A stretch of 64,000 bases of DNA from Candidatus Omnitrophota bacterium (GTDB taxonomy: Bacteria > Omnitrophota > Omnitrophia > Omnitrophales > Aquincolibacteriaceae): assembly GCA_043821445.1 (NCBI GenBank), contig JBDRCT010000033.1:5391-69390 (forward strand), written 5' to 3'. Made by a program: the position numbers and the translations under genes. Below are positions 1 to 57,618 of the stretch, piece by piece. A model generated the notes under the pieces. That model was not told where the DNA came from. It saw only the letters and a list, made by a program, of their open reading frames with translations, and made no database searches. Position 1 is the first letter of the stretch. Each line of letters opens with the position of its first letter.

Positions 1-180
1 CATCTCAGGCATAGCAATATCCAACAGAATAAGATCGGGCTGCCACATCTTTGCTTTTTCAAGAGCGCTTATGCCATCCGTTGCGATCTCGACAAGAAAT
101 CCGCGCGATGCGACACGGACCTTCAAGAGCGTCACCACCACAGGCTCATCATCCACAATCAGGATCTTTTTGGGCGCCAT
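1..180 (-). CDS. response regulator receiver-domain protein (N-terminal part only; gene runs off the window start)
   Basis: Minus-strand ATG at 178-180 preceded by AAGGAGG; translation MAPKKILIVDDEPVVVTLLKVRVASRGFLVEIATDGISALEKAKMWQPDLILLDIAMPEM has the CheY-like receiver layout (DD...D...K spacing). Confidence 0.7.
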   Translation of the reverse strand, partial: MAPKKILIVDDEPVVVTLLKVRVASRGFLVEIATDGISALEKAKMWQPDLILLDIAMPEM

Positions 181-183
181 GAT

Positions 184-264
184 CCCTCCTTAATTAAAAA
201 ATAAATCGAAAATTGGGACATTTCAAATCGCCGTTCGGAAAAAGAAAATAAAACTCGGGCGCCA
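184..264 (+). repeat. ~75-bp hairpin element, family CTCCTTAATTAAAAAA...AATTGGGAC...GCCCAAGTC...GACTTGGGCG (copy a, degenerate)
   Basis: Abuts the RBS/start codon of the response-regulator gene; 12-bp direct repeat GGGCGCCATGAT at 172-183 and ~253-264. Confidence 0.55.
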
Positions 265-327
265 TGATTCTTTTCAAATCTTGTTCTAAAGCCCCTCCAG
301 TAGGTTTCGGAATCCTCCTCCATAAAC

Positions 328-1002
328 TTAAAGCCTATTTCCAGCCCTTCGGGGGGCTGCTTTATATGCTGAGGGACACAAATCTTGAATCTCACAATGC
401 CAACAATCCGGCCGCCGGGCAAAACAACGGACACGGCCATGATGAATGATCAGATGCGCATAGAGCGTCCAATCCTTTTCCGGCACTAACTCCATCAAAT
501 CGAATTCGATCCTCACGGGATCCACGTGGCGCGTCGCCCCCAACAAACGATTGATGCGGATCATATGCGTATCCACCGGGATCCCGGGGATCCCGAAAGC
601 GTTCCCCAAAATGACATTGGCCGTCTTCCGGCCCACTCCCGGGATCGTAATGAGATCTTCCATCCGGGCCGGTACTTCTCCGCCAAATTTTTCAAGGATC
701 GCCTTCGCGGCGCCAAGAATATTCCTGGTCTTGTTCCTGTAAAAGCCCGTGCTCCGAACCGCTTTCTCAACCACCCCAGGATCCGCGGCTGCAAAGGCAC
801 ACATGTTTGGATACTTTTTAAAAAGAGCCGGCGTTACCCGATTCACGAGCTTATCAGTGCACTGGGCGGAAAGAACCGCCGCCACCAGAAGCTCCCACGG
901 TGTCCGAAAATAAAGGGCGCACCGGGTATCCGGATAAGACTTACGCAACCGGAGAAATATCGTACGCACGCGCCTTTTTTTGTCCGCAAATGTCTCTTTC
1001 AT
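328..1002 (-). CDS. nth: endonuclease III (DNA glycosylase/AP lyase)
   Basis: ORF 328..1023 trimmed to MKETFADKKRR; HhH-GPD motif (LITIPGVGRKTANVIL) and C-terminal C-x6-C-x2-C-x5-C [4Fe-4S] cluster loop. Confidence 0.9.
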   Translation of the reverse strand: MKETFADKKRRVRTIFLRLRKSYPDTRCALYFRTPWELLVAAVLSAQCTDKLVNRVTPALFKKYPNMCAFAAADPGVVEKAVRSTGFYRNKTRNILGAAKAILEKFGGEVPARMEDLITIPGVGRKTANVILGNAFGIPGIPVDTHMIRINRLLGATRHVDPVRIEFDLMELVPEKDWTLYAHLIIHHGRVRCFARRPDCWHCEIQDLCPSAYKAAPRRAGNRL

Positions 1003-1076
1003 GGATAATAATATACTACACACAAGCTTTAGTGTTGAAATCTATCCTGACTTTTATTTTCTTTTTTAAAATGGTG

Positions 1077-1128
1077 GTCAGGATTGCCCCAATTTCCACG
1101 CGGTAGAAATTGAAGAGGATTGGGACTC
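1077..1128 (-). repeat. GTCCCAAT(N)...GAAATTGGGGC repeat (family B), intergenic copy
   Basis: Reverse complement reads GAGTCCCAATCCTCTTCAATTTCTACCGCGTGGAAATTGGGGCAATCC; divergent promoter region of nth/adh. Confidence 0.5.
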
Positions 1129-1191
1129 AATGTCATCCGCATTGTCCTCTGTTTATATTTCAAGTATACTTCGCAAAGAGGAAGAATTTTT

Positions 1192-2229: not shown

Positions 2230-2309
2230 CAGCCGGATGGAGAATGACGGAGGACGGATGACGGAAACTTGACATCATCCGCCATCCTCGATCCACGACC
2301 CCTGCTCCC

Positions 2310-3203: not shown

Positions 3204-3302
3204 CACAGCTTCGAGATTGAAATTGTGAGCGGCACAATTTCAATCTGCTTTATGTGCTGTACCGTTCTCACCGAAAAAATTATAAATGAAACGGTATTAA
3301 GC

Positions 3303-4584: not shown

Positions 4585-4670
4585 CATATATAAAATCCTT
4601 TGACGATTTGATTTAATCCGCCAAAGAACCCGGCGGATCAAATTCGCACCTGTAACTTACGTGCCGTAAG

Positions 4671-15534: not shown

Positions 15535-15555
15535 CTGGAACCCCCTTATTTTTTA

Positions 15556-15602
15556 GTCCCAATACCTATCAATCTCAAACTTTTTGAAATTGGGGCAATC
15601 CT
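15556..15602 (+). repeat. family B repeat, intergenic copy directly upstream of DUF4870 gene start
   Basis: GTCCCAATACCTATCAATCTCAAACTTTTTGAAATTGGGGCAATCC. Confidence 0.55.
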
Positions 15603-15833
15603 TGTCAATCATTTAGAAAAAAATACAAGACAAGGATAGAAGCTCATTGCGGAATATTGTACCTCACTTCCAGGAAAAAACGATACCCTTCTTTCTCTGG
15701 CAAGATTAAAATAGGCCCTGTTCCGCCGACAATGCTTCACATCCCGTGTTGTGAAATATGAGACTTGCATATCATGCGCCGGATGTGGAAGGGGTGGCCA
15801 CTTGCCCCCCTCATTCCAAAAAAGGAGACAGTT

Positions 15834-17842: not shown

Positions 17843-18337
17843 CTACTCGAGGACTTGTTTGAAAAATTTGACGAACATTTCGGGGGTAACGCCAGTTGAA
17901 AGTTGTACGGCCCTGCCAGGCTGGGGCGGGTGAAGGAAAAAAGATGGATATCCGCGGACCCTGTATTGAAACGCGATATCATCCTCGCGTCTCCCGGATT
18001 CGGGATTGATATTGACTTTGATCATGTCCTTCATCATATCTTTGACAAGAGGCGACGACAGCACCCCTTTTTCGAACTTGCGGCAATAAGGGCACCACCT
18101 GACGCTCATATAAACGACCATCGGTCTATTGGTCTGCTTGTATTCTTCGACCGCCTGATCGTACCCGGAAGCACCCTGGTACCAACCCTCGGACCACTGA
18201 CCCGTAGCCGGTGCCCCGGCAGGCGTTGAAACGAATGGTGTGTACGATGCCCGTGGATCTTCGGCGTAGCATTCCGAACCCATGAGTAGAAGAGATAACA
18301 AAAAGAGCGAAACGATTTTTCTAGAATTCACATTCAC
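17843..18337 (-). CDS. secreted thioredoxin-fold protein
   Basis: Signal peptide; WCPYC CxxC active-site motif. Confidence 0.55.
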   Translation of the reverse strand: MNVNSRKIVSLFLLSLLLMGSECYAEDPRASYTPFVSTPAGAPATGQWSEGWYQGASGYDQAVEEYKQTNRPMVVYMSVRWCPYCRKFEKGVLSSPLVKDMMKDMIKVNINPESGRREDDIAFQYRVRGYPSFFLHPPQPGRAVQLSTGVTPEMFVKFFKQVLE

Positions 18338-18345
18338 CCCGTTAG

Positions 18346-18452
18346 AGATAGGAAACGTTTTTAAATAAACGCTTCCGTTTATGGCACAAATGCCCGCCTA
18401 AAGTTCATTCCCCTTCTATGGCAAATCGCCCGCAGAAAAATCTCTAACGGGG
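18346..18452 (+). mobile_element. MITE-like element, TIR family CCCCGTTAGAGATAGGA...TCTCTAACGGGG (copy 1, ~107 bp)
   Basis: Left terminus CCCCGTTAGAGATAGGAA, right terminus TCTCTAACGGGG (exact reverse complement); intergenic. Confidence 0.6.
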
Positions 18453-24488: not shown

Positions 24489-25517
24489 TGAAGCGAGGAG
24501 CTCGTTCACCTTGGCCATAACGGCGAAGGCATCGGCCACGTAGAGCACATCGGCCTTCCCTTGGGCCCAGCCGCAATTGGCGTCCATATTGACCGCGCGG
24601 CGTTCGTTGATAAAGCGCCAGCCGACCACGTGCGGTTCTTCTCCGTGACAGCAGGTGGAAAGGCCCTTCGGATGACGCGGCGTGGCGCCGGTCTGTCCGA
24701 CCTGGTTGAGATGGCTCATGAAGGAAAGCACCGCTTCCCCTTCCGACCCCTGGTCCACGAGCGATTTGCTGCTCCCGAGCGAGGCCTTGGCGTGTTTCAA
24801 GAAATCAAGAATATGTTTTTCGGCTTCCTTGGCATGGATCTGGCCATCCACCTGTTTTTTGGTCCATCCGGCACCCGCTACGAGCAGCACCGCGGCCTCC
24901 GGGCGAATGGTCTGCGCGTCTGCGGAAGGCGCTTCAACACCCGTCACTTTTGTGCGCTTTTCCTGGTCCGTCACAGCAACGGCAACCGCTTCCATTTTCG
25001 CCGCGCCTTTGGCCCCCTGCCACACCTCGAACACGCCGGAATCCACGGCGAGGATCCACGGCCGCGCCGCGCGAGTCAGTGTCGCCAACATGCGCTGACG
25101 ATAGTACCAGCGCTGGACCTGCAAAACGCCGCCGGTGAACTGTAGGCCGCTCACATGCGTATCGATCGTGGCCTTTAAACGGAATGCCGCGCCGGGCAAT
25201 GCCCTGGAAAAACGGGACGTTGCAGGGGCAACGATGATCGTCGCTCCCGAAGCGGTTCCGATGGCTTCCGCGGCTTTCACATCCGTTGCGTAACGCGAGG
25301 TCCCGAAATCAGCACCGCTCACGCCGAGCATTTTTGCTGCGCCGCATGCCGCGATCGAATCCGCGGCGGCCTGGACATTCTCCCCGACAAGACCGACGGT
25401 AAGCGTGGAACCCGCGAGGCCTTTCTGGACCTCAAGCGCCGCGTTTAAGGTTTCAAGCGCGACCTTCGGAAGAAGGCCGTTTGCATCCGTATGAGCTAAA
25501 AAGAGTATTTTTTCCAT
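24480..25517 (-). CDS. etfA: electron transfer flavoprotein alpha subunit
   Basis: 345 aa, EtfA N-domain and FAD-binding C-domain; last codons (SPR-stop) are encoded by the terminal inverted repeat of a MITE copy. Confidence 0.85.
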   Translation of the reverse strand: MEKILFLAHTDANGLLPKVALETLNAALEVQKGLAGSTLTVGLVGENVQAAADSIAACGAAKMLGVSGADFGTSRYATDVKAAEAIGTASGATIIVAPATSRFSRALPGAAFRLKATIDTHVSGLQFTGGVLQVQRWYYRQRMLATLTRAARPWILAVDSGVFEVWQGAKGAAKMEAVAVAVTDQEKRTKVTGVEAPSADAQTIRPEAAVLLVAGAGWTKKQVDGQIHAKEAEKHILDFLKHAKASLGSSKSLVDQGSEGEAVLSFMSHLNQVGQTGATPRHPKGLSTCCHGEEPHVVGWRFINERRAVNMDANCGWAQGKADVLYVADAFAVMAKVNELLASPR

Positions 25518-25786
25518 TATAGCCGTCCCCCCGTTAGAGATAGGAAGCGCTTCAATCGATTCTTCAAAAAACGTTTCCCCATCCCTGTTTTTAAATATCG
25601 TTCCCTTACTACAGCATCATTGATATCTATACAAGCTTCGTAATAAATTACCTCGAAAGGACCGCGCCCTTTAGTTGAAGCAACCCTGCCCTGCGAATGC
25701 TCCTTGAAGCGCTTCCGTAAATCTTTGCAAAATCCGGTGTAGAATTTTTTATCCCTCTGACTTTGCAAAACATACGTATAAAACAT
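25517..25786 (-). CDS. small stand-alone GIY-YIG nuclease-family protein (YhbQ/UPF0213-like)
   Basis: MFYTYVLQSQRDKKFYTGFCKDLRKRFKEHSQG...GPFEVIYYE...ERYLK matches the GIY-YIG catalytic core; lies between etfB and etfA, inside a 281-bp element with CCCCGTTAGAGA/TCTCTAACGGGG termini; its TAA stop overlaps the etfA ATG. Confidence 0.75.
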   Translation of the reverse strand: MFYTYVLQSQRDKKFYTGFCKDLRKRFKEHSQGRVASTKGRGPFEVIYYEACIDINDAVVRERYLKTGMGKRFLKNRLKRFLSLTGGRL

Positions 25787-25809
25787 TCCTCAACCAATCT
25801 CTAACGGGG
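25529..25809 (+). mobile_element. 281-bp member of the same TIR family carrying the GIY-YIG ORF (candidate autonomous or cargo-bearing copy)
   Basis: CCCCGTTAGAGATAGGAAGCGCTTC at the left, TCTCTAACGGGG at the right; fills the etfB-etfA intergenic space exactly; internal 89-aa GIY-YIG gene with SD supplied by the terminus. Confidence 0.6.
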
Positions 25810-26619
25810 TTAACCTCTTATCCAGGTTACGATCTCTTGGGCGATCTCTTCGACCGGCGTATCTTTGACGATGCGTGTCTGGCGCTGCTGCTTCGGCAGC
25901 TCCACGCTTGCGAATTTGATGGCGTCGGTCTTGAGCGCCGCGGGGGTCGCCTTCTGAAGGGCCGGCATAATGGTACGCATGTTCGTCATCCCGACCTGAG
26001 GATTGTTCGGCGGTTCCGGAAGATTTCCGGTCGCCCATCCGATCACGGCCGGGGCCCCGGCGCATGTGGAAACCAGGTATTGCCCGCCCTCGATACGCTC
26101 GAGGACCCTGAACGAGCCGTCCGGCTGGACCTTGAGTTCGTCGGCTGCAAGAAATACGTCATGGATCCCGAGCTGTTCGGCGATCATCTGCATCGTGGTC
26201 CCCGCGTCACGCGAAGCGGAGGAACAGCCGCCGAAGACGAGAAGCTTCGTTTTATCAAGTCCCGGGATCTTCTCGATCGCCCCGGCCAGGGCCGCCGCGA
26301 CTTCCCTTGAATCCATAAAACCGCTCGCGGAACCGTCAAGGCACACAAGCTCGAAGGGGACCTTCTGGGCGATGATCATCATGAGCTGTTGGAGCTTGGC
26401 TTTGGGCCCGAGGCTTAGGAGCGTCACCTTGCTTCCCGGGTTCTGCTTCGCGAGATTTGAGGCCTCAAAAAGGGAGTGCCCCGCCCACGGGTCCAGCACC
26501 GAAGGCAGCATCATTTCATTCTTAAGAGCGGGTCCGGTCGCCCCCTGGATCGGCTCCAGCGTCTGGAGCGGGTCCGGCACCAGACTCCCGCAGACTACGA
26601 TGTTAAAAGCTGTCGTCAT
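25810..26619 (-). CDS. etfB: electron transfer flavoprotein beta subunit
   Basis: 269 aa, EtfB fold (MTTAFNIVVCGSLVPD...LLSLGP...). Confidence 0.85.
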   Translation of the reverse strand: MTTAFNIVVCGSLVPDPLQTLEPIQGATGPALKNEMMLPSVLDPWAGHSLFEASNLAKQNPGSKVTLLSLGPKAKLQQLMMIIAQKVPFELVCLDGSASGFMDSREVAAALAGAIEKIPGLDKTKLLVFGGCSSASRDAGTTMQMIAEQLGIHDVFLAADELKVQPDGSFRVLERIEGGQYLVSTCAGAPAVIGWATGNLPEPPNNPQVGMTNMRTIMPALQKATPAALKTDAIKFASVELPKQQRQTRIVKDTPVEEIAQEIVTWIRG

Positions 26620-26627
26620 AATTCCCC

Positions 26628-26697
26628 TCCTTAAAAAATCAATTGAAAATTAGGACTGCCCAAGTCGCCGTTCATTAAAAGAAAACCAAGACTTGGG
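26628..26697 (+). repeat. hairpin element of the same family (copy b)
   Basis: TTAAAAAATCAATTGAAAATTAGGACTGCCCAAGTCGCCGTTCATTAAAAGAAAACCAAGACTTGGGCG; flanked by 14-bp direct repeat CGTCATA(A/G)TTCCCC containing the etfB start codon. Confidence 0.6.
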
Positions 26698-26708
26698 CGT
26701 CATAGTTC

Positions 26709-26838
26709 CCCCGTTAGAGATAGGATGCGCTTCTACTTTAAGAGCGCATCCGCTTGTTAATGAAATATAACCTTTTAATCCTTTACCCTCCGATAGAAAT
26801 CTCTTTCAAAAATATCGTCAAACCGATCTCTAACGGGG
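26709..26838 (+). mobile_element. MITE-like element of the same TIR family (copy 4, ~130 bp)
   Basis: CCCCGTTAGAGATAGGATGCGCT... (9-bp perfect hairpin GGATGCGCT/AGCGCATCC) ... GATCTCTAACGGGG. Confidence 0.6.
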
Positions 26839-26929
26839 TAAACCTTCCCTATTGAATGATTTCTGGGGAAACCGCGTCTTTATTGGGTCACTGGGCGGAC
26901 ATTATAATGAGGGAACTACTTTTCGGCTA

Positions 26930-27012
26930 GTCCCAATTCCATTCAATCGAAGCGAAGCTGAGATTGGGGCAATCCTGGCTACCATTTTTCAAAAGAAAAC
27001 AAAAGTCAGGGC
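26930..27012 (+). repeat. family B repeat with downstream hairpin module
   Basis: GTCCCAATTCCATTCAATCGAAGCGAAGCTGAGATTGGGGCAATCCTGGCTACCATTTTTCAAAAGAAAACAAAAGTCAGGGCAG. Confidence 0.5.
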
Positions 27013-27108
27013 AGTATCTTTTTGTTCAAGTACGCTAAAGACCCGGTCTTAAAAGGCTCTCAAAGACCGGGTCTTGGAATGGGTGTGCGGGGACTCACCC
27101 GTCTCTGC

Positions 27109-40395: not shown

Positions 40396-41082
40396 TCAAT
40401 TTCTTGGATTCCCGATACCCGCCCCGTCACAAATGATGGCGCGCCGCCTCAATTCGAAGAAGCATTTCACGCAACAAAGCACATCGGACGCCGCATTGTG
40501 CTGATCTTCAAAATCCACATCGAACAGCTTGACATGAAGCTCGGATAATTTCGGCCACTTGTTGCCGCCCAAACTTTTCATTTCTTTTCCAGGATGGTAG
40601 TTTGGACGGCCCCAATCTCCGCTTTGCTTCGATTGATTGGTATTGGGACCGTACGACCTCGGGATCTTGCAAAACTTCGTCGAGCTTTTCATGGTGCATA
40701 TTTTTTTGATCGTCCGTAGCCCATCCGGCATTCCCCGGCGCAAAAGCTCCACCCGGACCATTTTTTCATCGAAATCCAGATTATGCGCCACAAGACACGC
40801 GACACCCGGGATCGCTCCGGAGAACTCCCTCAAAACCTCCGCGGCCGGGCGCCCTTCTTTCAATGCCCTTTCGGTGCTGATGCCGTGGATCGCCGTCGCG
40901 CTTTCGGGGATCACGAAACCTTCCGGTTGGATCATGTGATCGTGAAGCTCAAGCTGTGTCCCGTCTTCGTCAAAAAGCGCCCAGGCGATCTGAACGATGT
41001 GCGGCCAGTTCCCGAGATCGGAAACGGGGGCCTTCCAGCTTTTCGGCAATCCGGTCGTTTCCGTATCAAAAAAAAGATACAT
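40396..41082 (-). CDS. DnaQ-like 3'-5' exonuclease (DEDDh family) carrying an in-frame repeat insertion
   Basis: MYLFFDTETTG Exo I motif, HNLDFD Exo II, NAASDV Exo III; ~30-aa segment (GPNTNQSKQSGDWGRPNYHPGK) is encoded by a copy of the GTCCCAATACC...ATTGGGGC repeat. Confidence 0.7.
   Translation of the reverse strand: MYLFFDTETTGLPKSWKAPVSDLGNWPHIVQIAWALFDEDGTQLELHDHMIQPEGFVIPESATAIHGISTERALKEGRPAAEVLREFSGAIPGVACLVAHNLDFDEKMVRVELLRRGMPDGLRTIKKICTMKSSTKFCKIPRSYGPNTNQSKQSGDWGRPNYHPGKEMKSLGGNKWPKLSELHVKLFDVDFEDQHNAASDVLCCVKCFFELRRRAIICDGAGIGNPRN
40600..40649 (-). repeat. family B repeat inserted in-frame inside the exonuclease CDS
   Basis: Minus-strand GGTCCCAATACCAATCAATCGAAGCAAAGCGGAGATTGGGGCCGTCC translated as GPNTNQSKQSGDWGRP. 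Confidence 0.55.
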
Positions 41083-41193
41083 TTTTACACCTTTATTGAG
41101 ACGCGTTTTCCGGCATGACAATATTTGTAAGTAATCGCCTTCCAGGAGGGAAAACCGGAAAAGATATTTGCGTTTAAGAGATCTTTCATGACG

Positions 41194-41805
41194 TTACTTC
41201 CCGGCCACGAATTCGAGCACCACATCTGCTTGCTTAGCCGCGGCAACACTGACCCGTGGCGATAAAGCTGGTGCTTTTTCGATGTCCGACGCAAGGTCCC
41301 CGATCAGAATGAGGTTCGGTTTGAGCTTTCGGACCTTCAGATCATCACTGGAGCCCCATCCCCCCAGTCCGGAAGCGGAGACGATCAATTTTCCGGTCGG
41401 GAGTATTCCGGACACGAGCATGCTCTTGGCTTCGGCCCGGTCGAGACACTCCACCACGACGTCGCAGTTCCGGAATATTTCCGGGATATTGGCGGGTTCT
41501 AGCTTCACGGACAGCATTTGAAGTTCGAGCCCGGGATTGATGCGGAGGAGATTGGTCCGTAATGCTTCGACTTTTTCCATCCCGACCTGATCCGCGAAAT
41601 AGAATTGCCGGTCCAAATTGGAAGGATCGATGCGATCGAAATCCACGATCGTAAAATGCCTGAAACCGACCCGGACGAGGCAGGCCGCGCAATTGGAGCC
41701 CAGGCCGCCCGCGCCCGCAATGCCGATCTTCGCTTTTTCGATCTTCGCGAGCTTCGCTTCACCGAGCTTTTCAATAAGGTCCTGCCGGAACGCGTCCATC
41801 ATCAA
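41194..41805 (-). CDS. thiF: ThiF/MoeB-family adenylyltransferase (ThiS activation)
   Basis: IGIAGAGGLGSN Rossmann/ATP motif, E1-like fold; last gene of the thiS-G-H-F string. Confidence 0.75.
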   Translation of the reverse strand: MMMDAFRQDLIEKLGEAKLAKIEKAKIGIAGAGGLGSNCAACLVRVGFRHFTIVDFDRIDPSNLDRQFYFADQVGMEKVEALRTNLLRINPGLELQMLSVKLEPANIPEIFRNCDVVVECLDRAEAKSMLVSGILPTGKLIVSASGLGGWGSSDDLKVRKLKPNLILIGDLASDIEKAPALSPRVSVAAAKQADVVLEFVAGK

Positions 41806-42998
41806 ATTTGCATCCAGTCTTTCAACACCGGCTGGTACCCTTTGGCGACGAGCATCGCTTTGAACTCTTCGACGCTCCGCGGGTCCGAGATCTCAAACTG
41901 GGAAGCATCCTCCCCTTCCGCCCCGACTTTTATTTTCTTTTGATCAACGGTAGTCGGGACGGCCCCAATTTCAACCCCGTTAAAATTGATAGGTATTGGG
42001 ACCGGAGATCCGAGCGTGTGGCCGCCGACGCGTGTCGTCGAGCCCGCCGACATGCGCGTGACCCCGAGAGGCAAAAGATGCTCGCGCAGCGAAGCGCTTT
42101 CCCGCGTGGAAAGCGTGATCCCGATCCGCGGCAGGAAAAGCCTCAAGGCCACGATGATCTGCGTCATGTTCCTGTCGCTTACCTCCGTCATTTCTTTGAA
42201 ATCCCCGGCATGCGGCCTCAGACGCGGAAGCGAAACTCCGATCTCGACCTCTCCGTAGCGGTCCTGCAAATACCGGGCGTGAAGGCCCACCCAGAAAACT
42301 TCTTTCCGCCAATCATTCAATCCCAGAAGCGCCCCGACGTTCACGCTTCTCATTCCATTCTTCGCGGCGCGCTCCGGCGCGTCAAGCCGGAAGCGGAAAT
42401 CTTTTTTAGGCCCCGCCTTATGCACCTGCTCATAAACCTCCGCATCATAGGTCTCCTGATATAAGGTCAATCCATCGACACCTGAACGTACGAGGTCCGC
42501 GTATTCCTCTTCCGTGAGTGCGTAGATCTCGACGGCAAGAGAGCTGAAATATTTTTTGAGTACTTTGAGGCATTTTTTGATATAGGACAGCGGACTTTTT
42601 TCCCTCGAATCTCCCGTCAGGATAAGAAGATGCTCGATCCCTGTCGAAGCGATGAACGCGGCCTCTTTTTCCACTTCTCCCAAAGTCAGTGTTCTCCGAG
42701 GTATTTTGTTCAGGGTATTGAACCCGCAATAAGCGCACTCATTCTCGCAATAATTCGAAAGATACATCGGCGTGTAAAGCTGGAGGGTCCTGCCAAAGTG
42801 CATCAGGGTCAAGGCATGCGCCCTTTGCGCCATGGGCTCTAACAATCTTTCCGCAGCCGGAGAAAGAAGCGCCAAAAGACGCGCGGGATCTTGCGCGTCG
42901 GAATGGATCGAACGCTCAACGTCTTGGAGTGAAATCTCACGGAAGATCTTCTCGGAAGGAAGGTCCTTATATTTCAGAAGGGTATCGTAGTAGCTCAT
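41802..42998 (-). CDS. thiH: 2-iminoacetate synthase (tyrosine lyase, radical SAM) with in-frame repeat insertion near C-terminus
   Basis: CENECAYCGF radical SAM motif, ThiH-specific C-terminus (...QFEISDPRSVEEF...PVLKDW); ~25-aa insertion VPIPINFNGVEIGAVPTTVDQ encoded by repeat copy at ~41952-42003. Confidence 0.8.
   Translation of the reverse strand: MSYYDTLLKYKDLPSEKIFREISLQDVERSIHSDAQDPARLLALLSPAAERLLEPMAQRAHALTLMHFGRTLQLYTPMYLSNYCENECAYCGFNTLNKIPRRTLTLGEVEKEAAFIASTGIEHLLILTGDSREKSPLSYIKKCLKVLKKYFSSLAVEIYALTEEEYADLVRSGVDGLTLYQETYDAEVYEQVHKAGPKKDFRFRLDAPERAAKNGMRSVNVGALLGLNDWRKEVFWVGLHARYLQDRYGEVEIGVSLPRLRPHAGDFKEMTEVSDRNMTQIIVALRLFLPRIGITLSTRESASLREHLLPLGVTRMSAGSTTRVGGHTLGSPVPIPINFNGVEIGAVPTTVDQKKIKVGAEGEDASQFEISDPRSVEEFKAMLVAKGYQPVLKDWMQI
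41952..42003 (-). repeat. family B repeat inserted in-frame inside thiH
   Basis: Minus-strand GTCCCAATACCTATCAATTTTAACGGGGTTGAAATTGGGGCCGTCCCGAC translated as VPIPINFNGVEIGAVPT (different frame from the exonuclease copy). Confidence 0.55.
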
Positions 42999-46720: not shown

Positions 46721-48524
46721 GCTTGAAATTTCCCCATTTTTTTTCTAAAGAATTCCACTCCGCCTCGGCAGCTTCGATCTGGATCTGCAGTTCTTTTAAG
46801 CGCACATTGCGCTCCTTAGAAAAATGAAGCGGGTTCTTCGCCATCTCCTCCAAGACCTTGTTCCGCTCCTCTGTGAAATGCCGCGCACGTCCTTCGGCTT
46901 TTTCCATGCTCTTGCGGAGCTTCGTAAGCTCGACCTTGTGCTCATTCTTCTTAGGCTGCTGAATTTCGACAGGGGGCTTGGAAGCCTTATGGGGGAGAGA
47001 CGCAGACGCGTTGTTTTCATCGCTGTCTTCTTCCTCGCCCCGGGCCACCTGCTCCAGGTGATAAACATAATCCTCATAGCTTCCGGGGTAGTGCAGGATA
47101 CGGCCTTTCTTCACTTCGAGAATGCTTGTCGCCAGAAGATTGACAAAAGTCCGGTCATGGCTGATGAAAAGCACGGTGCCGGAAAAGGCTTTAAGCGCCC
47201 GACCCAAGGCCTCCACCGTTTCGAAATCCAAGTGGTTCGTCGGCTCATCGAGAAGCAGGACATGGCTCTTGGAAAGAAGCAGTCCGGCCAGAACGAGACG
47301 CGCGCGTTCACCGCCGCTTAGAACCTTCACTTTTTTTGAAACGTCATCTCCTTTAAAAAGAAAGCACCCGGCCATGTTCAGCACATCCTGATTGCTGACC
47401 CCTGCCGCGCTTTCGCGCGAAAGATAAGTGTAAATATCATCCTCCGGGTCAAGCACCGCAAAGACATGCTGCGCGTAATAGGCCACTTTGAGCCCGGTTC
47501 CCCAACGAAAACTGCCCCCTTTGGGCGCGAGATCCCCCGCGAGCGTCATGAGAAAGGTCGTCTTCCCCTCACCGTTATTGCCGAGCACCGCGACATGCTT
47601 TCCCCGGTCGATCTCGACTTGGATCTTTCGCGCGATATCTTTTTCCGGATAGCCGATGACAAGATCTTCACAGCTGACCGCCACTCCCGCTTTCGGCTCC
47701 ACAGGCGGGATATGGATCTTAACCGTGCTCATGGGGTGTGCGATCTCGATCGTTTTAAGTTTTGCGAGTTGTTTCATTTTCGACTGTGCACGCGTCGCCG
47801 TGGAAGCCTTCGCCTTGAACCGGTCAATGAAGATCTGGAGTTGTTCCCGTTTCTTGTCGAGACCGCGGTTATAGGCCTGTTTCTGGGCGAGTTGCTCCTC
47901 CTTGAATTCGAAATACTCTTCAATGTCCCCGGGATAAAGGGCAAGCCCTCCGTTCTCGACCTCAAGCGTGTGATCACAGGTCCGCTTCAAGAATTCCCGA
48001 TCGTGGGAGACGACCAGATACCCGCCTTTGAAATCGAGCAGAAAATTTTCTAAAAGGATCAACGTGCTCAAATCTAAATAGTTGCTAGGTTCGTCAAGAA
48101 TCAGGAAATTGGGGTCGCCCAAAAGCATTGCCGCAAGCTTCACGCGCGTCTGAAAACCTCCCGGAAGATTCCGTACGGATTCTTCAAGGATCTCATTTTC
48201 AAGCTGGAACCGCGCGGCGATCTGCCCGCACTCCCAATGCTCGCTCCGCGTGGTGCGCATCAGGAAGTCCACCACCCGCTCCCCGGGCTTGAACGTATCA
48301 TGCTGTTCGAGATAGGAGAGGCGCAACGCAGCGTTGCGCGTGACGGTACCGCTTTCAGCCGATTCGTGTCCGGTGATGATACGGCAAAGCGTGGATTTCC
48401 CGGCCCCGTTGCGGCCGATCACACCGATCTTTTGATCATCTCCGAATGACGCGGTGGCGTTATCGAGGATCGTTACAGCGCCATAGGCCTTGTGCAATTC
48501 ATTGACTTGTAATAAGACGGTCAT
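46707..48524 (-). CDS. ABC-F family ATPase (two ABC domains, no TMD; Uup/YheS/EttA-like)
   Basis: Two Walker A (GRNGAGKST, GNNGEGKTT), two LSGGE signatures, C-terminal coiled-coil. Confidence 0.85.
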   Translation of the reverse strand: MTVLLQVNELHKAYGAVTILDNATASFGDDQKIGVIGRNGAGKSTLCRIITGHESAESGTVTRNAALRLSYLEQHDTFKPGERVVDFLMRTTRSEHWECGQIAARFQLENEILEESVRNLPGGFQTRVKLAAMLLGDPNFLILDEPSNYLDLSTLILLENFLLDFKGGYLVVSHDREFLKRTCDHTLEVENGGLALYPGDIEEYFEFKEEQLAQKQAYNRGLDKKREQLQIFIDRFKAKASTATRAQSKMKQLAKLKTIEIAHPMSTVKIHIPPVEPKAGVAVSCEDLVIGYPEKDIARKIQVEIDRGKHVAVLGNNGEGKTTFLMTLAGDLAPKGGSFRWGTGLKVAYYAQHVFAVLDPEDDIYTYLSRESAAGVSNQDVLNMAGCFLFKGDDVSKKVKVLSGGERARLVLAGLLLSKSHVLLLDEPTNHLDFETVEALGRALKAFSGTVLFISHDRTFVNLLATSILEVKKGRILHYPGSYEDYVYHLEQVARGEEEDSDENNASASLPHKASKPPVEIQQPKKNEHKVELTKLRKSMEKAEGRARHFTEERNKVLEEMAKNPLHFSKERNVRLKELQIQIEAAEAEWNSLEKKWGNFKHEKL

Positions 48525-48542
48525 TGTCTAAGATTCTTTTCC

Positions 48543-48679
48543 ATTAGGGTTGATGATAACCGCCCAATTTCCGCCCAAGTCTTTGTTTTCTTTTAATCAA
48601 TGGCGACTTGGGCGGCACTGATTACCTTCATTTTGAAACAGAATCAAGTGCCGCTACGTAGAAATTGATAGGTGTTGGG
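48543..48679 (-). mobile_element. 137-bp composite repeat element inserted at the pyk/ABC-F junction with a 26-bp flanking direct duplication
   Basis: Contains GCCGCCCAAGTCGCCATTGATTAAAAGAAAACAAAGACTTGGGCGG hairpin (reverse orientation) plus TCCCAACACCTATCAATTT module; flanked by ACGGTCATTGTCTAAGATTCTTTTCC (48517-48542) and ACAGTCATTGTCTAAGATTTTTTTCG (48680-48705). Confidence 0.6.
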
Positions 48680-48683
48680 ACAG

Positions 48684-49703
48684 TCATTGTCTAAGATTTT
48701 TTTCGGTAAATTTAATGATCTGGCTCATCATTTCAACGCATTGAACGGGATAAAGGCCAGCGGCAGATTCGGCGGAAAGCATCACGTAGTCCGTTCCATC
48801 GAGAATTGCGTTCGCCACATCACTGACTTCGGCGCGGGTCGGGATGGGATGTTCCGTCATGCTCTCAAGCATCTGGGTCGCCGTGATCACGAATTTCTTC
48901 GCCTTATTGCATTTCTTAATGATCTTCTTCTGAATCGAGGGCACTTCATAAATCGGAACAGAGATCCCCATATCCCCGCGTGCGACCATGATCCCTTCGC
49001 AAACGCTTATGATTTCATCGATATTTCGGATCCCTTCCCGGTTCTCAATCTTGGCGATCACGTCGCATTCGTGGGAGTGGCTTTTCAGATGAGACCGGAG
49101 ATCTAAAATATCCCTTTTATTCCGTACGAAAGATTGTGCGATATAATCCACTTTATGCTCGATGCAAAAATGAATGTCCTCCCTGTCCTTCCGGGTCAGC
49201 CCCGTGACATCCAATTGCACGCCAGGCATATTGATTCCTTTGCGTTCTTTGATCGCACCTCCAACGATCACGCGAGTCTTGAGATTTTTTTGATCACGAG
49301 CCTCGACTTTGAGGGCAATAAGACCGTCGTCAATGTAGATAAGCTGGCCTGGTTTGATAGGTCGCAAAGAACCCACCCAATCAAAGGGAATATGGGAATT
49401 TTCTCCGACCGTGTTTTCCGTCGTGAGCCAGAGAATCTGCCGCTTCTTGACCTCGACCGGCTTCTGCCCCTTCAGCTCACCAATCCTCATTCGATAACCT
49501 TCGAGATCTCCCAGGATTTGGATGCGGCGGCGATATTTTTTGTTCAGCGCTCTGATGAGACAGATCTTCTCCCGGTGCTCCGCAAGCGTTCCGTGGGAAA
49601 AATTAAGCCGTACCACATCCATTCCCGCACGCATCATCTGCCGCAGGACATTGGCCCGGCTTGAAGCGGGACCCAGCGTGCAAATGATCTTTGTGCTCGT
49701 CAT
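48684..49703 (-). CDS. pyk: pyruvate kinase (short form lacking C-terminal regulatory domain)
   Basis: [14 protein letters not shown]..., [16 protein letters not shown]+/Mg site motifs; 339 aa. Confidence 0.8.
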
Positions 49704-53597: not shown

Positions 53598-53607
53598 CAT
53601 AGTGGTG

Positions 53608-54366
53608 TTACTCCTTTGGATTTGTTGGGGTATTAACAATGGCGTTGGCTTTCCGATAAGAGTCGAGGTCACCGATATCCAACCATTTTCCCTTAAGAGA
53701 AGAAGCAAAGAGGCCTGACGTTTCAGCCAGCCAACGCATATAATGGCCGGGTTGGTCGGTATTATGGCCGCTTGTGATATACCTGTCAAGCAGGCTCCAA
53801 GTCTCCCGGGGAAGCCAATAGATACCGCTCGAGGCCAGCGTGGTGGCGGGTTGGGGCGGTTTTTCCTGAAATTCCAGGATCTTTCCCTCCTGATCGATCC
53901 TGACAAGACCGTAGCGCTTGGCCAGCTCTTTATCCCCAACATCATAGGCCGCGATCACTCCGTGTGGCCGTTTTTTTATTCCAAAATCAACGAACGATGC
54001 CAGGTCAAAATCGAAGAAATTATCTCCTGCGATCACTAAAAGATCGCAAGGACTGACTTTCTTGATCCTGATCACATAAGCCAGGTCCCCGATGGCCCCA
54101 AGGCGGGTCTCATTACTCATCGTGTGGTCGTTCACGACCTCAAGCGGCCAGGGATATTTCATTTTCGCCGCCCAAGCTTCAAAATGCCCGGCGAATTTTT
54201 GATTGCTCACGAGATAAACGGCCTGAACACCTTGAACTTTTTGGACGCGCTCCAGGATCCATTCCAGAATAGGTTTATCCCCCACTAAAAGCAGAGGCTT
54301 CGGCATATTCTCGGTCAGCGGGTAAAGACGCGTCGCATATCCCGCGCAAAGAACGATGACCTTCAT
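53608..54366 (-). CDS. sugar-phosphate nucleotidyltransferase (NTP_transferase family)
   Basis: [27 protein letters not shown]-x-G-T-R motif. Confidence 0.75.
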
Positions 54367-54373
54367 AAGTTCA

Positions 54374-54488
54374 CCCCATTAAAGGCAGGAAGCGCCTGCG
54401 GCACTTCCGTATGCTTCGAAAATCTCATCCGCGTATCTCTCCTTGTTTTCTGCAAACCCAAGAATTCTACCGTTGATTTCTAACGGGG
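54374..54488 (+). mobile_element. degenerate member of the same TIR family (copy 5)
   Basis: Degenerate left end CCCCATTAAAGGCAGGAAGCGCC; right end TTTCTAACGGGG overlapping the stop and C-terminal codons of the PGI/PMI-family gene. Confidence 0.45.
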
Positions 54489-55459
54489 CAGGCCTTTTTG
54501 ATCCGGTCGATTACCTCGACCGACATGGGATCAACCTTGTAGAGCTTTGCCAACTCGCAACTCGTCCAGTCCCCCAGCATGATCATAGAAAAAATCCGGG
54601 CAAGGACCCCCTCGCCTCGGGCCTTGACCTCCACAACCTCGGCACCATGTTCCAGGATCGCCTCCATCGCAACCTTCTTTTTCTTGCGAAGCCACTCCGG
54701 CTCGTTCCGATCCGTCAGAAAAATAGCCGCCGAACGCTTGATCTTGAATTTCGGAAAAATCCAACCTTCGACCTCATGGTGGAACATCTCAGGCAGCGCT
54801 TCGCAAGAAGCAAGCGTCTTTGCGTTCTCAGCGAATTGAGTGCGCCACCGGAGCGCCACGGATTGCATCAACCCTCCACCGTAGATCGCGATATTCTTGT
54901 CGACAAGTTGCTTCGCGAGTTTGCGTGCCTCCATCTCTGGAAAGTGACGGCTCCCGCGAAGCACTTCCCCGATCTCCTTGTCGGAGACTGAGAACCACCG
55001 GCAACGCATAAAAAGAAAAAGAAGCGAAAAAGCCGTGTATCCGATCGTAAAACGCGGCGGGTACCCCTGGGGCAAACGGAAAAACGGGATCTTTCTCTTG
55101 AGAGCCTCCTCCGCGAGCCGTCCCCCGGACGCCACGATAAGAAAATGCGCTTTGCGCGCGACCGCTTGTTCAAAGATCGATTCGACTTCATCCGTATTGC
55201 CGGAGTAGCTTGAAAGGATCACGACAGTTTTAGAATCGACCCATTCGGGAAGCCGCGAGGTCCGGTTCACCGTCCAATGGATGCGCGAACGGCTTTGGGC
55301 AATGGTCCCAAGAATATCTCCACTGATGGCAGAACCGCCCATCCCGCAATAAAGGACCTCCTCAGGCCTTCGGATGAACGAGGACGGAAGGCTGATGCCT
55401 CCGGCGATCACGCGGGCCTTCATGACCTGATTGGCCAAATCCTTCAGATAAACTTCCAT
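54467..55459 (-). CDS. bifunctional phosphoglucose/phosphomannose isomerase-family protein (SIS domains)
   Basis: Tandem SIS domains (CGMGGSAISGD, SYSGNTDE); C-terminal PVRNQR-stop encoded by a repeat terminus (CCCCGTTAGAAATC). Confidence 0.7.
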   Translation of the reverse strand: MEVYLKDLANQVMKARVIAGGISLPSSFIRRPEEVLYCGMGGSAISGDILGTIAQSRSRIHWTVNRTSRLPEWVDSKTVVILSSYSGNTDEVESIFEQAVARKAHFLIVASGGRLAEEALKRKIPFFRLPQGYPPRFTIGYTAFSLLFLFMRCRWFSVSDKEIGEVLRGSRHFPEMEARKLAKQLVDKNIAIYGGGLMQSVALRWRTQFAENAKTLASCEALPEMFHHEVEGWIFPKFKIKRSAAIFLTDRNEPEWLRKKKKVAMEAILEHGAEVVEVKARGEGVLARIFSMIMLGDWTSCELAKLYKVDPMSVEVIDRIKKACPVRNQR

Positions 55460-57222
55460 TATTCGTCGGCAAGCTCCGCGCAAACATTTTTGAGCTTCTC
55501 TTTTAGAAAAGCATAGGACTCTTTACCGGTATGGAACGCGAGGGCCTTTTGGGCGATCTCTTTGGCGTCGGAATAGCGGATCGAACGGATCGCCTTCTTG
55601 ATCTTGGGCAGCATGACAGGACTGGCGCTGATCTCGTCAATCCCAAGCCCCACCAGGAGGATGGCGATCGCCGGATCCGAGGACATTTCTCCGCAGCTTC
55701 CCACCCAAATATTGTGGCCGTGCCCGTTCCGAATCGTCAGGTCGATTAGACGAATGATCGCCGGATGGGTCGGCTCATAAAGATGCGCGATCTTTTCGTT
55801 CATGCGATCGATCGCAAGTACATACTGGATCAAATCGTTCGTCCCGAGGGAAAAGAAATCCACTTCCTTGGCCAATACGTCGCTGGCCAATGCCGCCGAA
55901 GGGATCTCGATCATGGCCCCGACAGGAATGTTCTTGTTGAAAGGAATGCCTTCGTTTTCGAGTTCGGCTTTCGCTTCATTTAATATTTTAAGTGCAGCAC
56001 GGATTTCGTAAACGCCCGTGATCATCGGATACATGATCTTCAAATTTCCTGGGGCACTTGCCCGGAGGATCGCCCGAAGCTGGGTTTTAAAGATATCTGT
56101 GCGCGTCAGACAGAAGCGAATAGCGCGCCAACCCAGATAAGGATTCATCTCGTGGGGGATCTCGAGCGTGGAAGCGAATTTATCGCCTCCAAGATCGAGG
56201 GTGCGAATGATCACCGAATGCGGGTGCATCGCTTGCGCGATATTGCGGTAGGCCTCGTATTGTTCCTGTTCGGTCGGAAGCGTCGCCCGGTTCATGTAAA
56301 AATATTCCGTGCGGAAAAGCCCGACCCCTTCGCCGCCATGAGAAATGACAGACGATGCCTCGTGATGAAATTCGATATTGGCGGCCAGCGCGATGCGTTT
56401 TCCGTCCAGCGTTTCGGCCGGAAGGTCGCGCAACTTATCCAACTCCCCCGTGAGCTGAATAAAACGGTTCCCTTGGGAGTTGAATTTGTCGATGGTCGCT
56501 GGATCGGGATTGATAATCACGACTCCATGCAGCCCATCCACGATGATCGTATCGTCATCCTGAAGTTCATTGACGATCTCTTCAAGTCCCACGACGGCCG
56601 GGATCTCAAGCGAACGCCCGAGGATCGCCGTATGCGATGTCGCCCCGCCGATCTCGGTCATGAACGCCATAACTTTGCTCCGATCAAGTGAAGCCGTATC
56701 CGACGGCGAAAGATCGTGGGAAGCGATGATCACTTTTCCTTGGAATTCCTCTAGGCGTTTTTTTTCTTCGCCACAAAGATTCGCGAGAAGACGTTTGCCC
56801 ACATCGCGGATATCTGAGATGCGCTCTTTGAGGTATTCGTCATTGATCTGGGAAAAGGCCTGAAAGTAGCGCTGGATTACAGCCGCGAAGGCGTATTCCG
56901 CTCCAACCTTTTCGCCCTTGATGACTTCGATCACATCTTCAATCAGGGTCCGGTCTTCGAGAATCAAAAGATGCGCCGTAAAGATATCCGAACTCTCCCG
57001 ACCGATCTGTCCCGAAAGTCTCCGGCGAATGCCGAGAATCTCGGTACGGGTGCGCGTAAGAGCTTCTTCGAACCGGGCGATCTCGTTGGAGATCTGCTCG
57101 GGACCCACGGAACGTTTGGGAAGATTGAAAGAGCCTCCGCTATGCAGGATAAACACCTTCCCGATCGCGATGCCGGGAGATACCCCGATCCCTTGATACT
57201 CTTTCATTATTTTATTCTCCAA
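55459..57222 (-). CDS. ptsI: phosphoenolpyruvate-protein phosphotransferase (PTS Enzyme I)
   Basis: 587 aa; phospho-His region (GGATSHTAILGRSLEIPAVVG), PEP-utilising C-terminal TIM barrel. Confidence 0.9.
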   Translation of the reverse strand: MENKIMKEYQGIGVSPGIAIGKVFILHSGGSFNLPKRSVGPEQISNEIARFEEALTRTRTEILGIRRRLSGQIGRESSDIFTAHLLILEDRTLIEDVIEVIKGEKVGAEYAFAAVIQRYFQAFSQINDEYLKERISDIRDVGKRLLANLCGEEKKRLEEFQGKVIIASHDLSPSDTASLDRSKVMAFMTEIGGATSHTAILGRSLEIPAVVGLEEIVNELQDDDTIIVDGLHGVVIINPDPATIDKFNSQGNRFIQLTGELDKLRDLPAETLDGKRIALAANIEFHHEASSVISHGGEGVGLFRTEYFYMNRATLPTEQEQYEAYRNIAQAMHPHSVIIRTLDLGGDKFASTLEIPHEMNPYLGWRAIRFCLTRTDIFKTQLRAILRASAPGNLKIMYPMITGVYEIRAALKILNEAKAELENEGIPFNKNIPVGAMIEIPSAALASDVLAKEVDFFSLGTNDLIQYVLAIDRMNEKIAHLYEPTHPAIIRLIDLTIRNGHGHNIWVGSCGEMSSDPAIAILLVGLGIDEISASPVMLPKIKKAIRSIRYSDAKEIAQKALAFHTGKESYAFLKEKLKNVCAELADE

Positions 57223-57457
57223 AATTAGATCCTATGAGTTTGGCCAACGTCTCCATGGCCTCCGCGGCGTCCTTGCCGGTCACGCGCACCGTGATCGACG
57301 ATCCCATTTCGGCCGCAAGGGTCATAATGCCCATGATCGATTTACCATCGGTCTGGATATCTTCTTTTTGAACCTCGACCGACGCCTCAAACCGGTTGGC
57401 CGTCTGGACAAAAACGGCGGCGGGCCGGGCGTGAAGGCCCAGTTTGTTGCTGATCAC
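57212..57457 (-). CDS. ptsH: phosphocarrier protein HPr
   Basis: LGLHARPAAVFVQ His-15 region, Ser-46 region (KSIMGIMTLAA); apparent GTG start, preceded by an A10 homopolymer and a repeat element. Confidence 0.8.
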   Translation of the reverse strand: MISNKLGLHARPAAVFVQTANRFEASVEVQKEDIQTDGKSIMGIMTLAAEMGSSITVRVTGKDAAEAMETLAKLIGSNFGE

Positions 57458-57518
57458 AAAAACTCGCTCAATCGATTCTTGTTTGATTTTTTTTTTGTCG
57501 CTTCGGCATGATCTTCCT

Positions 57519-57589
57519 TAATTAAAAAAATGAATTGGAAATCATGGCTGCCCAAGTCACCCTTATTAAAAAAAACAAAGACTTGGGCG
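57519..57589 (+). repeat. hairpin element of the same family (copy c)
   Basis: AATTAAAAAAATGAATTGGAAATCATGGCTGCCCAAGTCACCCTTATTAAAAAAAACAAAGACTTGGGCG; flanked by CATGAT(C/T)TTCCTT 13-bp direct repeat; between yvcK-like and ptsH. Confidence 0.6.
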
Positions 57590-57618
57590 TCATGATTTTC
57601 CTTGATCAAAATGGGCAA

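Follow-up and report, generated by a model that had tools for sequence, protein, structure and literature searches.

Small hairpin-forming repeats, probably mobile, at translation starts and inside genes of a Candidatus Omnitrophota bacterium

Background

Among described repeats, the nearest case that we found to one supplying a translation start is boxC of the BOX elements (boxA-boxB(n)-boxC) of Streptococcus pneumoniae, which can supply the start codon for adventitious open reading frames (ORFs); these BOX-derived ORFs are hypothetical and have no good Shine-Dalgarno (SD) sequence (PMC3049150). Here we analyze a stretch of 64,000 nucleotides (64 kb; hereafter the window) from a Candidatus Omnitrophota bacterium (GCA_043821445.1, contig JBDRCT010000033.1, positions 5,391 to 69,390), in which a first-pass annotation had noted three hairpin elements immediately upstream of start codons (E1, E2 and E3) and a fourth, reversed copy (E4). 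Our reading, to which we give a probability of roughly 60% for its observed and inferred parts taken jointly, is that E1-E4 belong to a family of interspersed repeats that are small, modular and non-autonomous and form hairpins, that the family is mobile DNA and not a conserved leader, and that copies at gene starts regenerate the start codon. We distinguish two subfamilies, the E-type, to which E1-E4 belong, and the R-type, which consists of canonical two-hairpin copies of about 88 nt.

Like BOX, this family is made of small modular repeats with duplicated or missing modules, which are strongly folded, often co-transcribed and have no known transposase. It differs from BOX in that it appears to give the SD sequence, the ATG and the second codon to housekeeping genes (etfB, ptsH and a response regulator gene); the two have no sequence similarity and are found in different phyla. 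[quoted passage not shown] Rickettsia palindromic elements are palindromic repeats lying in frame inside conserved protein genes with the frame kept (PMC10969869). The likeness to them is one of behaviour only, namely the in-frame inserts in thiH, a DEDDh exonuclease gene, polA and the gene of an Fe-S protein; here a minority of the copies are intragenic, two frames are used, a start-codon subfamily exists, and the sequence and the host phylum are unrelated. A 2024 review of prokaryotic MITEs does not mention start codons or ribosome-binding sites (PMC10969869). A full-text literature search gave no paper on such repeats in Omnitrophota or on a repeat supplying a translation start, and, common as small interspersed repeats are, we found no described example of one that would provide the SD sequence, the AUG and the second codon of conserved housekeeping genes.

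REP, BIME and REPIN sequences are short, high-copy hairpins with compensatory stem changes, which are lineage-specific, mostly intergenic and associated with RAYT transposases. The present family is likewise composed of short high-copy hairpins with compensatory changes, lineage-specific and mostly intergenic. It differs in that the position at the 3' end of the hairpin-1 loop reads GGTAG in some copies and GGTAA, GGTGG, GGCGA or GGTGA in others, and no RAYT gene flanked by repeats was seen in the loci searched; the flanking direct repeats, head-to-tail arrays and in-frame coding inserts are features of this family and not of REP. The attC sites of integrons have a left core, an inverse core inside and a right core (GTTRRRY / RYYYAAC), form hairpins that are conserved in structure, and occur in head-to-tail arrays. 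The core/inverse core/core topology, the pairing of the inverse core with the right core in the folded hairpin and the head-to-tail arrays recur here, but the boundaries read GGGACNN or ATYATGRCG instead of GTTRRRY, the copies are dispersed at gene starts and in genes, and the units of 82-88 nt contain no ORF; intI and attI were not seen, but no search aimed at them was made. The likeness to attC lies in a possible working mode and not in membership.

Results and discussion

Eleven copies of one repeat family in the window

The first-pass annotation had placed E1, E2 and E3 on the minus strand directly 5' of gene starts, with direct repeats at both ends of each, and these observations were confirmed, the repeats being exactly as it had given them and the genes being real ones identified from Pfam. 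The reversed copy at the junction of pyk and the ABC-F gene was also found, with a 26-nt repeat on its flanks. Comparison of the window with itself added six further repeats of about 88 nt (R1-R6), which align with E1-E4 over the whole length, and together with a lone hairpin 1 at 62654-62690 the total is eleven copies. They are listed below, with scores from the covariance searches.

E1, 172..268, minus strand: E-type (21.8 bits, E = 0.0096), 5' of the response-regulator receiver gene (ATG 180-178)
E2, 26614..26711, minus strand: E-type (35.1 bits), 5' of etfB (ATG 26619-26617)
E3, 57507..57603, minus strand: E-type (29.1 bits), 5' of the HPr gene ptsH, which is followed by ptsI (ATG 57509-57507)
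E4, 48516..48704, body 48542-48678, plus strand: composite copy (36.6 bits with the six-copy model, 50 bits in a second search), antisense to the genes, at the junction of the pyk stop and the ABC-F start
R1, 1041..1128, plus strand: R-type (97.9 bits), in the intergenic region between the divergent endonuclease III and alcohol dehydrogenase genes
R2, 15554..15640, minus strand: R-type (87 bits), about 20 nt upstream of the start of a DUF4870 gene
R3, 26928..27015, minus strand: R-type (102.8 bits), upstream of the etfB leader and immediately 5' of a TCATTATAAT box that is conserved
R4, 40564..40651, plus strand: R-type (92.3 bits), in frame and antisense in a DEDDh exonuclease gene (40396-41121, minus strand)
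R5, 41917..42004, plus strand: R-type (101.3 bits), in frame and antisense in thiH (41802-42998, minus strand)
R6, 62566..62690, minus strand: 104.4 and 21.9 bits, composed of H1a (62690-62654), H1b and hairpin 2 (62653-62566)

The canonical unit of about 88 nt consists of two hairpins. Hairpin 1 has a stem of 7-11 bp, the sequence of which varies from copy to copy while the pairing is kept (CCTGAC/GTCAGG, CCAAACT/AGTTTGG, CCCGACT/AGTCGGG and CCCTGATT/AATCAGGG), and a conserved, T-rich loop of about 24 nt (TTTTATTTTCTTTT..AATGGT). Hairpin 2 of the R-type is CCCCAATTTC...GAAATTGATAGGTATTGGGAC with the outer stem CCCCAAT/ATTGGG, and the unit ends in GGGAC followed by two bases. In the family alignment, the R-type end ...ATTGATAGGTATTGGGAC corresponds to the E-type end ...ATTAAGGAGGGATCATGGC. 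The perfect 9-mer hairpin GCCCAAGTC...GACTTGGGC occurs four times in the window.

A covariance model was built from the six R-type copies of the window alone, with E1-E4 left out. The model recovered all four of these elements (E = 5e-6 to 1e-2) and the lone hairpin 1, found 45 copies in the window and the family-positive loci and 34 more in metagenome contigs, and gave no match at E <= 0.01 in about 78 unrelated control loci from the same scan. The four occurrences of the 9-mer hairpin, the recovery of all four elements and the empty controls indicate that the elements are not due to chance. In the alignment of the 45 copies, 93.9% of the cells were paired and double changes were seen in 18 of the 19 pairs, values to be read with the caution that this alignment was fitted to the model; none of 500 shuffles reached the observed pairing and covariation, nor did slid registers come close. 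Rfam gave no match in the whole window at the gathering thresholds, and only noise (15 bits, E >= 3) with permissive settings over E2 and R3. When RNA folding was compared with that of shuffled sequences, E2 (z = -2.7) and E3 (z = -3.0) folded well, whereas E1, the hairpin 1 of which is degenerate, was no better than the shuffles (z = +0.65); E1 has only a decayed version of the 9-bp hairpin that had been described for all three elements.

Presence and absence at orthologous sites

The occupancy of orthologous sites differs between relatives, which are cited here by locus number. The E2 site at etfB is filled in the window, in L056/L146 and in L160, and it is empty in L167-L170, whose EtfB proteins are 86, 83, 76 and 75% identical (L170 reads cacAGGAGGtatttcGTGACAACAGCTTTT). 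L120 is empty at the E1 site at the response-regulator start and also lacks R1 in the orthologous region, and the E4 site at the pyk/ABC-F junction is empty in L171 and L172, although the metagenome-assembled genome (MAG) of L171 carries the family elsewhere. Sites that are filled in relatives and empty in the window were found in L097, in L032 and, twice, in L128, which keeps synteny with the window for 11 kb (about 88-90% identity) and has E3 and R6 in common with it.

Two further properties accompany these differences. E-type copies form head-to-tail arrays at contig ends with a period of 82 nt and 100% identity, and R-type copies occur as in-frame inserts in genes. R5 is a 29-codon in-frame insert in thiH: the ThiH structure 7pd1 aligns to query residues 2-328 and 362-396, while its own chain is contiguous (339 to 341). 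R4 is likewise a 29-codon in-frame insert in the DEDDh exonuclease gene, with the ExoIII motif HNAASD downstream in the same frame. Relatives have in-frame inserts in polA and in the gene of an Fe-S (RnfC-like) protein (L166 9758-9845 and 3229-3316; L151 1250-1337). Of 47 R-type copies, about 10 are crossed by a long reading frame, which is in each case antisense to the element, and four or five of these are confirmed by motifs of the host protein; the inserts use two frames (GPNTNQ..GDWGRPNYH..KSLGG and VPIPIN..EIGAV..KKIKVGA). If the inserts are what they seem, they would show that essential proteins (PolA, ThiH) tolerate 29 additional residues.

The differences in occupancy, the tandem arrays and the in-frame inserts together suggest that the family behaves as mobile DNA and not as a conserved leader. 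The first-pass annotation had proposed a family of inserted elements, as opposed to a leader present at all orthologues, and the seven additional copies in the window and the empty orthologous sites of E1 (L120), E2 (L167-L170) and E4 (L171, L172) are in line with this proposal.

E-type copies and the translation start

Twenty-five E-type copies from many loci (alignment A5) gave the consensus ATGRCGYCCAAGTC - loop - GACTTGGGC - WG - YCATRATT - ..TTTTTAATTAAGGAGAATYATGRCG. The loop of their hairpin 2 holds TTAATTAAGGAGG, which comprises stop codons in two frames and an SD sequence, and the 3' arm (R) is AATYATG, whose ATG is the start codon of the downstream gene. An internal segment, CATRATT (X'), pairs with R in 96% of the cells among the 25 copies; at the variable position there were 17 G:C pairs, 6 A:U pairs and 2 mismatches (Fisher p = 1.7e-5, with the caveat that the A:U copies include three that are mutually orthologous). 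This pairing places the start codon in the 3' arm of hairpin 2 and the SD sequence in its loop. The YCATRAT common to the flanking repeats, which had been taken for a target preference, is thus the start-codon arm of hairpin 2.

In E2, hairpin 1 (GCCCAAGTC/GACTTGGGC) lies at 26698-26658, X' is GTCCTAATT and the tail carries AAGGAGGGG; in E3, hairpin 1 lies at 57588-57550, X' is CCATGATT and the tail is TTTTTTTAATTAAGGAAGATC. E1 has the tail TTTTTTAATTAAGGAGGGATC, followed by the response-regulator ATG. Over the whole E-type, the start-codon ATG at the right end opens a frame of at least 60 codons, or one running off the contig, at about 11 independent loci, and in the remaining seven or so copies further repeat modules come next; the second codon is NCG in about 20 of the 25. 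The flanking repeats also recur outside E1-E3, since an ATG is present at the left end in 21/25 copies and at the right end in 24/25. The left ATG, usually with an SD-like run, begins an upstream ORF (uORF) of 5-25 codons, which passes across hairpin 1, its stop codon being 11-69 nt upstream of the real AUG; the uORFs of E1 (ATG 266-264), E2 (ATG 26703-26701) and E3 (ATG 57593-57591) have 23, 17 and 23 codons, respectively. A conserved leader peptide was considered and rejected, because the uORF peptides share only the DNA-forced M[TA][PS]KS[LF]F and differ in length and stop position. A regulon was rejected as well, as the neighbours of E-type copies serve unrelated functions (CDF transporter, nuclease, HPr, methyltransferase-like protein and deacetylase).

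The N-terminal lengths of two proteins are kept in comparison with empty orthologues. EtfB begins MTTAFNIVVC in the window and (V)TTAFNIVVC in L170, and the response regulator begins MAPKKILIVDDE in the window and MLKKKILFIDDE in L120; the first three codons of the former, ATG GCG CCC, are the 5' end of the element, and its empty orthologue begins ATG TTA AAG. With a 3' terminus of ATYATGRCG, an E-type copy inserted just past the ATG and the second codon of a gene would restore both in frame and add an SD sequence, and the old SD sequence and ATG would be left upstream and become the start of the uORF. A position 3' of a match to the element's own 3' end would in this way regenerate the start codon and codon 2. 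The downstream gene would then probably be translated by direct initiation at the new SD sequence or by termination and reinitiation after the uORF, which could explain why E-type copies are tolerated in tight junctions such as yvcK-ptsH or pyk/ABC-F. As far as can be judged from the sequences, E-type copies are probably able to occupy tight operon junctions without silencing the gene. For annotators, such starts would also account for odd uORFs and for the N-termini 'MAP/MTP' that recur among Omnitrophota genes.

Two other functions had been suggested for E1-E3, an attenuator and a weak outward promoter. No terminator-like site was found in any of the three, whose loop of about 24 nt and U-run about 9 nt past the stem do not match the GC-rich, short-loop stem and immediate U-run of an intrinsic terminator. 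In a consensus scan for promoters, E2 and E3 were without a match, and the single one in E1 was at the level expected by chance.

Several of these features might also be expected of a conserved RNA leader regulating in cis, be it a riboswitch, a hairpin bound by a protein or a translational switch that depends on a uORF; the repeats would then serve as alternative pairings of X' with the left repeat (L) or with R. The strong covariation of the stems, the fold of E2 (z = -2.7), which takes the start codon and part of the SD sequence into hairpin 2, the uORF stops in or just before hairpin 2, and the conservation of E2 hairpin 1 and R6 hairpin 2 between orthologues, far above that of synonymous sites, all agree with such a leader. 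We nevertheless consider it unlikely, because the family is found in both orientations, in frame inside coding regions and in tandem arrays, its E-type host genes have no common function, relatives lack the element at the etfB, response-regulator and pyk/ABC-F sites, the hairpin of E1 has decayed, and Rfam gave no match.

Two observations concern individual starts in the window. R6 ends on the A of an in-frame ATG (62564-62566; GGGACTATGGCCAAG). The lipid A acyltransferase gene probably starts at this codon, as its Pfam match begins seven residues later; the junction is conserved in L128, indicating that R-type copies can also abut start codons. In ptsH, an A10 run (57487-57496, a T-run on the plus strand) puts ATG 57509 out of frame with the HPr domain, so that 13 codons are followed by a stop. 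Nine A instead of ten would give MPKRQKKIKQESIERVFVISNKLGLH..., matching MTKRQKKIKQNLLERVFVIGNKLGLH of the L128 orthologue, and the run is either a homopolymer assembly error or a real frameshift.

Nature of the direct repeats

The direct repeats are GGGCGCCATGAT in E1 (172-183 and 257-268, exact; ATCATGGCGCCC at 183-172 and 268-257 when read on the minus strand), CGTCATA(A/G)TTCCCC in E2 (26614-26627 and 26698-26711) and CATGAT(C/T)TTCCTT in E3 (57507-57519 and 57591-57603). Their interpretation as simple target-site duplications of fixed length could not be maintained. Over the family, the repeat length ranges from 6 to 31 nt, and the core, ATYATGRCG, is a family-wide boundary sequence that also forms the junction between units in the 82-nt tandem arrays; the apparent target duplication is mostly the element's own boundary sequence. 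In E1, as in L003, L119 and L141, the right-hand repeat continues into sequence that at the left end forms the 5' arm of hairpin 1, and this part of the repeat is therefore element and not host sequence. In E2, the outer CCCC of the upstream repeat belongs to the terminal inverted repeat of a different element that was inserted later, and a simple target-site duplication was rejected for this copy because its upstream repeat stems partly from that later insertion. Without the later element, the E2 repeat is about 11 nt in the window and about 19 nt in the orthologue L056, which does not have the later element and keeps the older repeat AGGAGATGAAATTTATGACG / AGGAGGAGAATTATGACG. The left flank of E3 contains about 18 nt resembling a partial extra tail, and the orthologous copy of L128 is without this stretch. 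Only E4 has a pure host duplication: its 26-nt repeat GACRGTCATTGTCTAAGATTYTTTTC (48516-48541 and 48679-48704) is made up of the last pyk codons and the SD sequence and ATG of the ABC-F gene. The pyruvate kinase encoded at 48684-49703 has 339 residues and consists of the barrel domain only; homologues of the clade have the same length, so that E4 has not truncated it.

These repeats bear on whether the family could be a classical MITE, that is, a deletion derivative of an insertion sequence that is moved in trans by a DDE transposase and has terminal inverted repeats and a target-site duplication of fixed length. Small size, AT-richness, strong structure, dispersal, direct repeats on both flanks and differences in presence between relatives would all fit, but the variable length of the repeats and their core of element sequence, which also joins tandem units, would not. 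In addition, the ends of the family show an inverted similarity of only about 5-7 nt, G(C/T)CCC(AA), which is the foot of the two hairpins, neither E-type end (ATGRCGYCC... and ...AAGGAGAATC) is an inverted copy of the other, and single hairpin modules differ in presence independently. Over the window and roughly 1.3 Mb of loci, for which only two HUH queries (IS200/IS605 and RAYT) were tried, no related transposase gene came to light, nor any insertion sequence whose matching ends would mark it as the parent. We regard a classical MITE as very improbable.

A possible insertion rule

The cleanest pair of filled and empty sites is GTTGTGGAAC[TATCCTGAC...GTATTGGGAC]TAAAATCC in L128 and GTTGTGGGACTAGACTCC in the window, or in brief GGAAC[TATCC...GGGAC]TAAAAT and GGGACTAGAC. 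The L128 copy sits just after a GGRACTA that is equal to its own 3' end; other filled sites are less clear. A similar comparison is given by R6, where the window has, after a GGGAC-type foot and hence a GGGAYWG-like sequence, one more hairpin-1 module, about 45 nt long and with GGGCAG as its end, and L128 reads GGGATTG at this position and continues straight on to hairpin 2. The L128 orthologue consists of H1a and hairpin 2 only, indicating that the hairpin-1 module was gained or lost independently. In 20 of 39 R-type copies (about 9 expected), bases 2-4 are the same as the final three, an agreement that subfamily descent could explain too; another module's foot frequently forms the left flank of these copies. 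Applied to the E-type, the rule would give ATYATGRCG both as left flank and as 3' end. In the E-type, the left flank has T in 6/8 copies with X' = A and in 3/17 with X' = G. X', complementary to the 3' end as well as to the target-like left flank, may match the element to its target, in a manner likened to guide-directed single-strand transposition or attC-type recombination.

These observations have been considered in the light of REP/REPIN or IS200/IS605-type elements, in which a HUH Y1 enzyme (RAYT or TnpA) reads single-stranded DNA hairpins and insertion is paired to a guide. Compensatory changes in the hairpins, the high copy number (11 in 64 kb), the clean L128 insertion, which lies 3' of a sequence identical to the element's 3' terminus and to which the H1b comparison of R6 may be added, the complementarity of X' to the target-like flank and the 3' end, and a RAYT-like remnant in one family-positive MAG are compatible with this explanation. 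It is, however, improbable in our view: the remnant has 41 residues and adjoins no copy, no invariant GTAG-type tetranucleotide is present, the two hairpins are unlike each other whereas IS200/IS605 ends are alike, and the 26-nt host duplication of E4 and the terminal redundancy are unexpected from peel-and-paste transposition. A tblastn search with TnpA (IS608) and RAYT sequences as queries matched cyanobacterial IS200/IS605 copies and one remnant in an Omnitrophota MAG. The link to an HUH transposase was rejected, as the only Y1/RAYT-like match in a family-positive MAG was this C-terminal remnant (L086, 7841-7984), with no family hairpins beside it.

A tentative extension of our reading, which we hold to be possible but not probable, is that the family represents a kind of self-targeting mobile hairpin not described before, in which X' picks sites like the element's own 3' end and one lineage has been retuned to SD-N-ATG-RCG. 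Such a lineage would home to first codons and rebuild the interrupted start, and would amount to a portable translation-initiation cassette. Its enzyme would be as yet unrecognised, or unnecessary if copies arise by circle integration or template switching. An insertion rule of this kind, if true, would explain how selfish DNA colonises compact genomes with overlapping genes, and would be a natural example of sequence-programmable insertion; the mobilising mechanism is the part most likely to hold something new.

Several results weigh against mobility with regeneration of starts, or against the rule proposed for it. No transposase or recombinase was linked to the family by the IS200/IS605 and RAYT queries over the loci mentioned above. 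The 26-nt pure host duplication of E4 is left unexplained by insertion 3' of the element's own end. The left flank follows X' loosely (76% paired), the right end being stricter. The left and right repeats of one element share copy-specific variants (self 10.7, cross 8.0; permutation p = 5e-5), so that the repeats have a copy-specific part besides the shared core; terminal redundancy or gene conversion would account for this better than a simple guide model. Campbell-type circle integration as the sole mechanism was rejected because it leaves these variants unexplained. The translation of the uORF and of the main ORF is something that we infer from the sequence. Finally, some resident copies are conserved to an extent unexpected for a purely selfish insertion: E2 hairpin 1 is identical to that of L146 at 47/48 positions against 60.7% at etfB third codon positions, and R6 hairpin 2 differs from that of L128 at about 1/44 positions (counted from the printed sequences), with ptsI third positions 72.4% identical. 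This conservation hints at a host-level role or at gene conversion between copies. E3 changes at a roughly neutral rate (83% and 71%), and E1 is decayed.

Taxonomic distribution

A hairpin of the family type was found in at least eight MAGs labelled Candidatus Omnitrophota or Omnitrophica and in at least four unclassified MAGs; the scan, for the perfect hairpin, covered one genome per species, and the range is a lower bound. As far as sampled, the family is confined to Candidatus Omnitrophota. The window genes are 81-87% identical in DNA to those of several family-carrying MAGs, and the window pyruvate kinase is 100% identical to the NCBI entry 'MAG: pyruvate kinase [Candidatus Omnitrophota bacterium]'. 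Separate look-ups of the exact EtfB, HPr and pyruvate kinase proteins of the window yielded no record. Viral contigs gave one chance match and no family member. For Omnitrophota MAGs, the family is a practical marker and, through its tandem arrays at contig ends, an assembly hazard.

A hairpin with the same 9-bp stem was also seen in the filamentous cyanobacteria Capilliphycus, Lyngbya and Limnoraphis (L015, L019, L049, L060, L068 and L105). There GCCCAAGTC..GACTTGGGC is flanked by ATTAAT and, in L015, L049 and L019, lies within about 1 kb of an IS200/IS605-type TnpA-like sequence. The likeness in sequence is a coincidence, and the cyanobacterial hairpin is unrelated to the family.

A second mobile family and additional modules

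A second, unrelated mobile family with the terminal inverted repeats CCCCGTTAGAGATNGG is present in the window. Its copy at 25527-25811 contains an 89-residue GIY-YIG nuclease ORF (25517-25786, minus strand; Pfam E = 5.7e-14) and sits between etfB and etfA, genes that are 4-12 nt apart in relatives. Three miniature copies without the ORF were found at 26706-26841, 18337-18452 and about 54375-54490; the first abuts the E2 upstream repeat and is absent from L056, and the last is absent from L128. The TCATTATAAT box (26890-26915 in the window, with equivalents in L056 and L160) lies downstream of R3 and upstream of the etfB leader in the three genomes. It is a candidate -10 element, in which case the miniature GIY-YIG-type element and E2 would both sit in the 5' untranslated region of etfB.

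Further modules travel with the repeat family, either beside hairpins 1 and 2 or alone. They include 'GTAC-type' hairpins such as GTACCGTTAACCC..AACGGTAC and also ATACCGCAT..ATGCGGTAT, and were seen at L097 5390-5540, L032 1200-1350 and L128 2377-2450 and in L044 and L017. In L128 they stand alone, as a two-hairpin insertion of 74 nt at a site that is empty in the window (55461).

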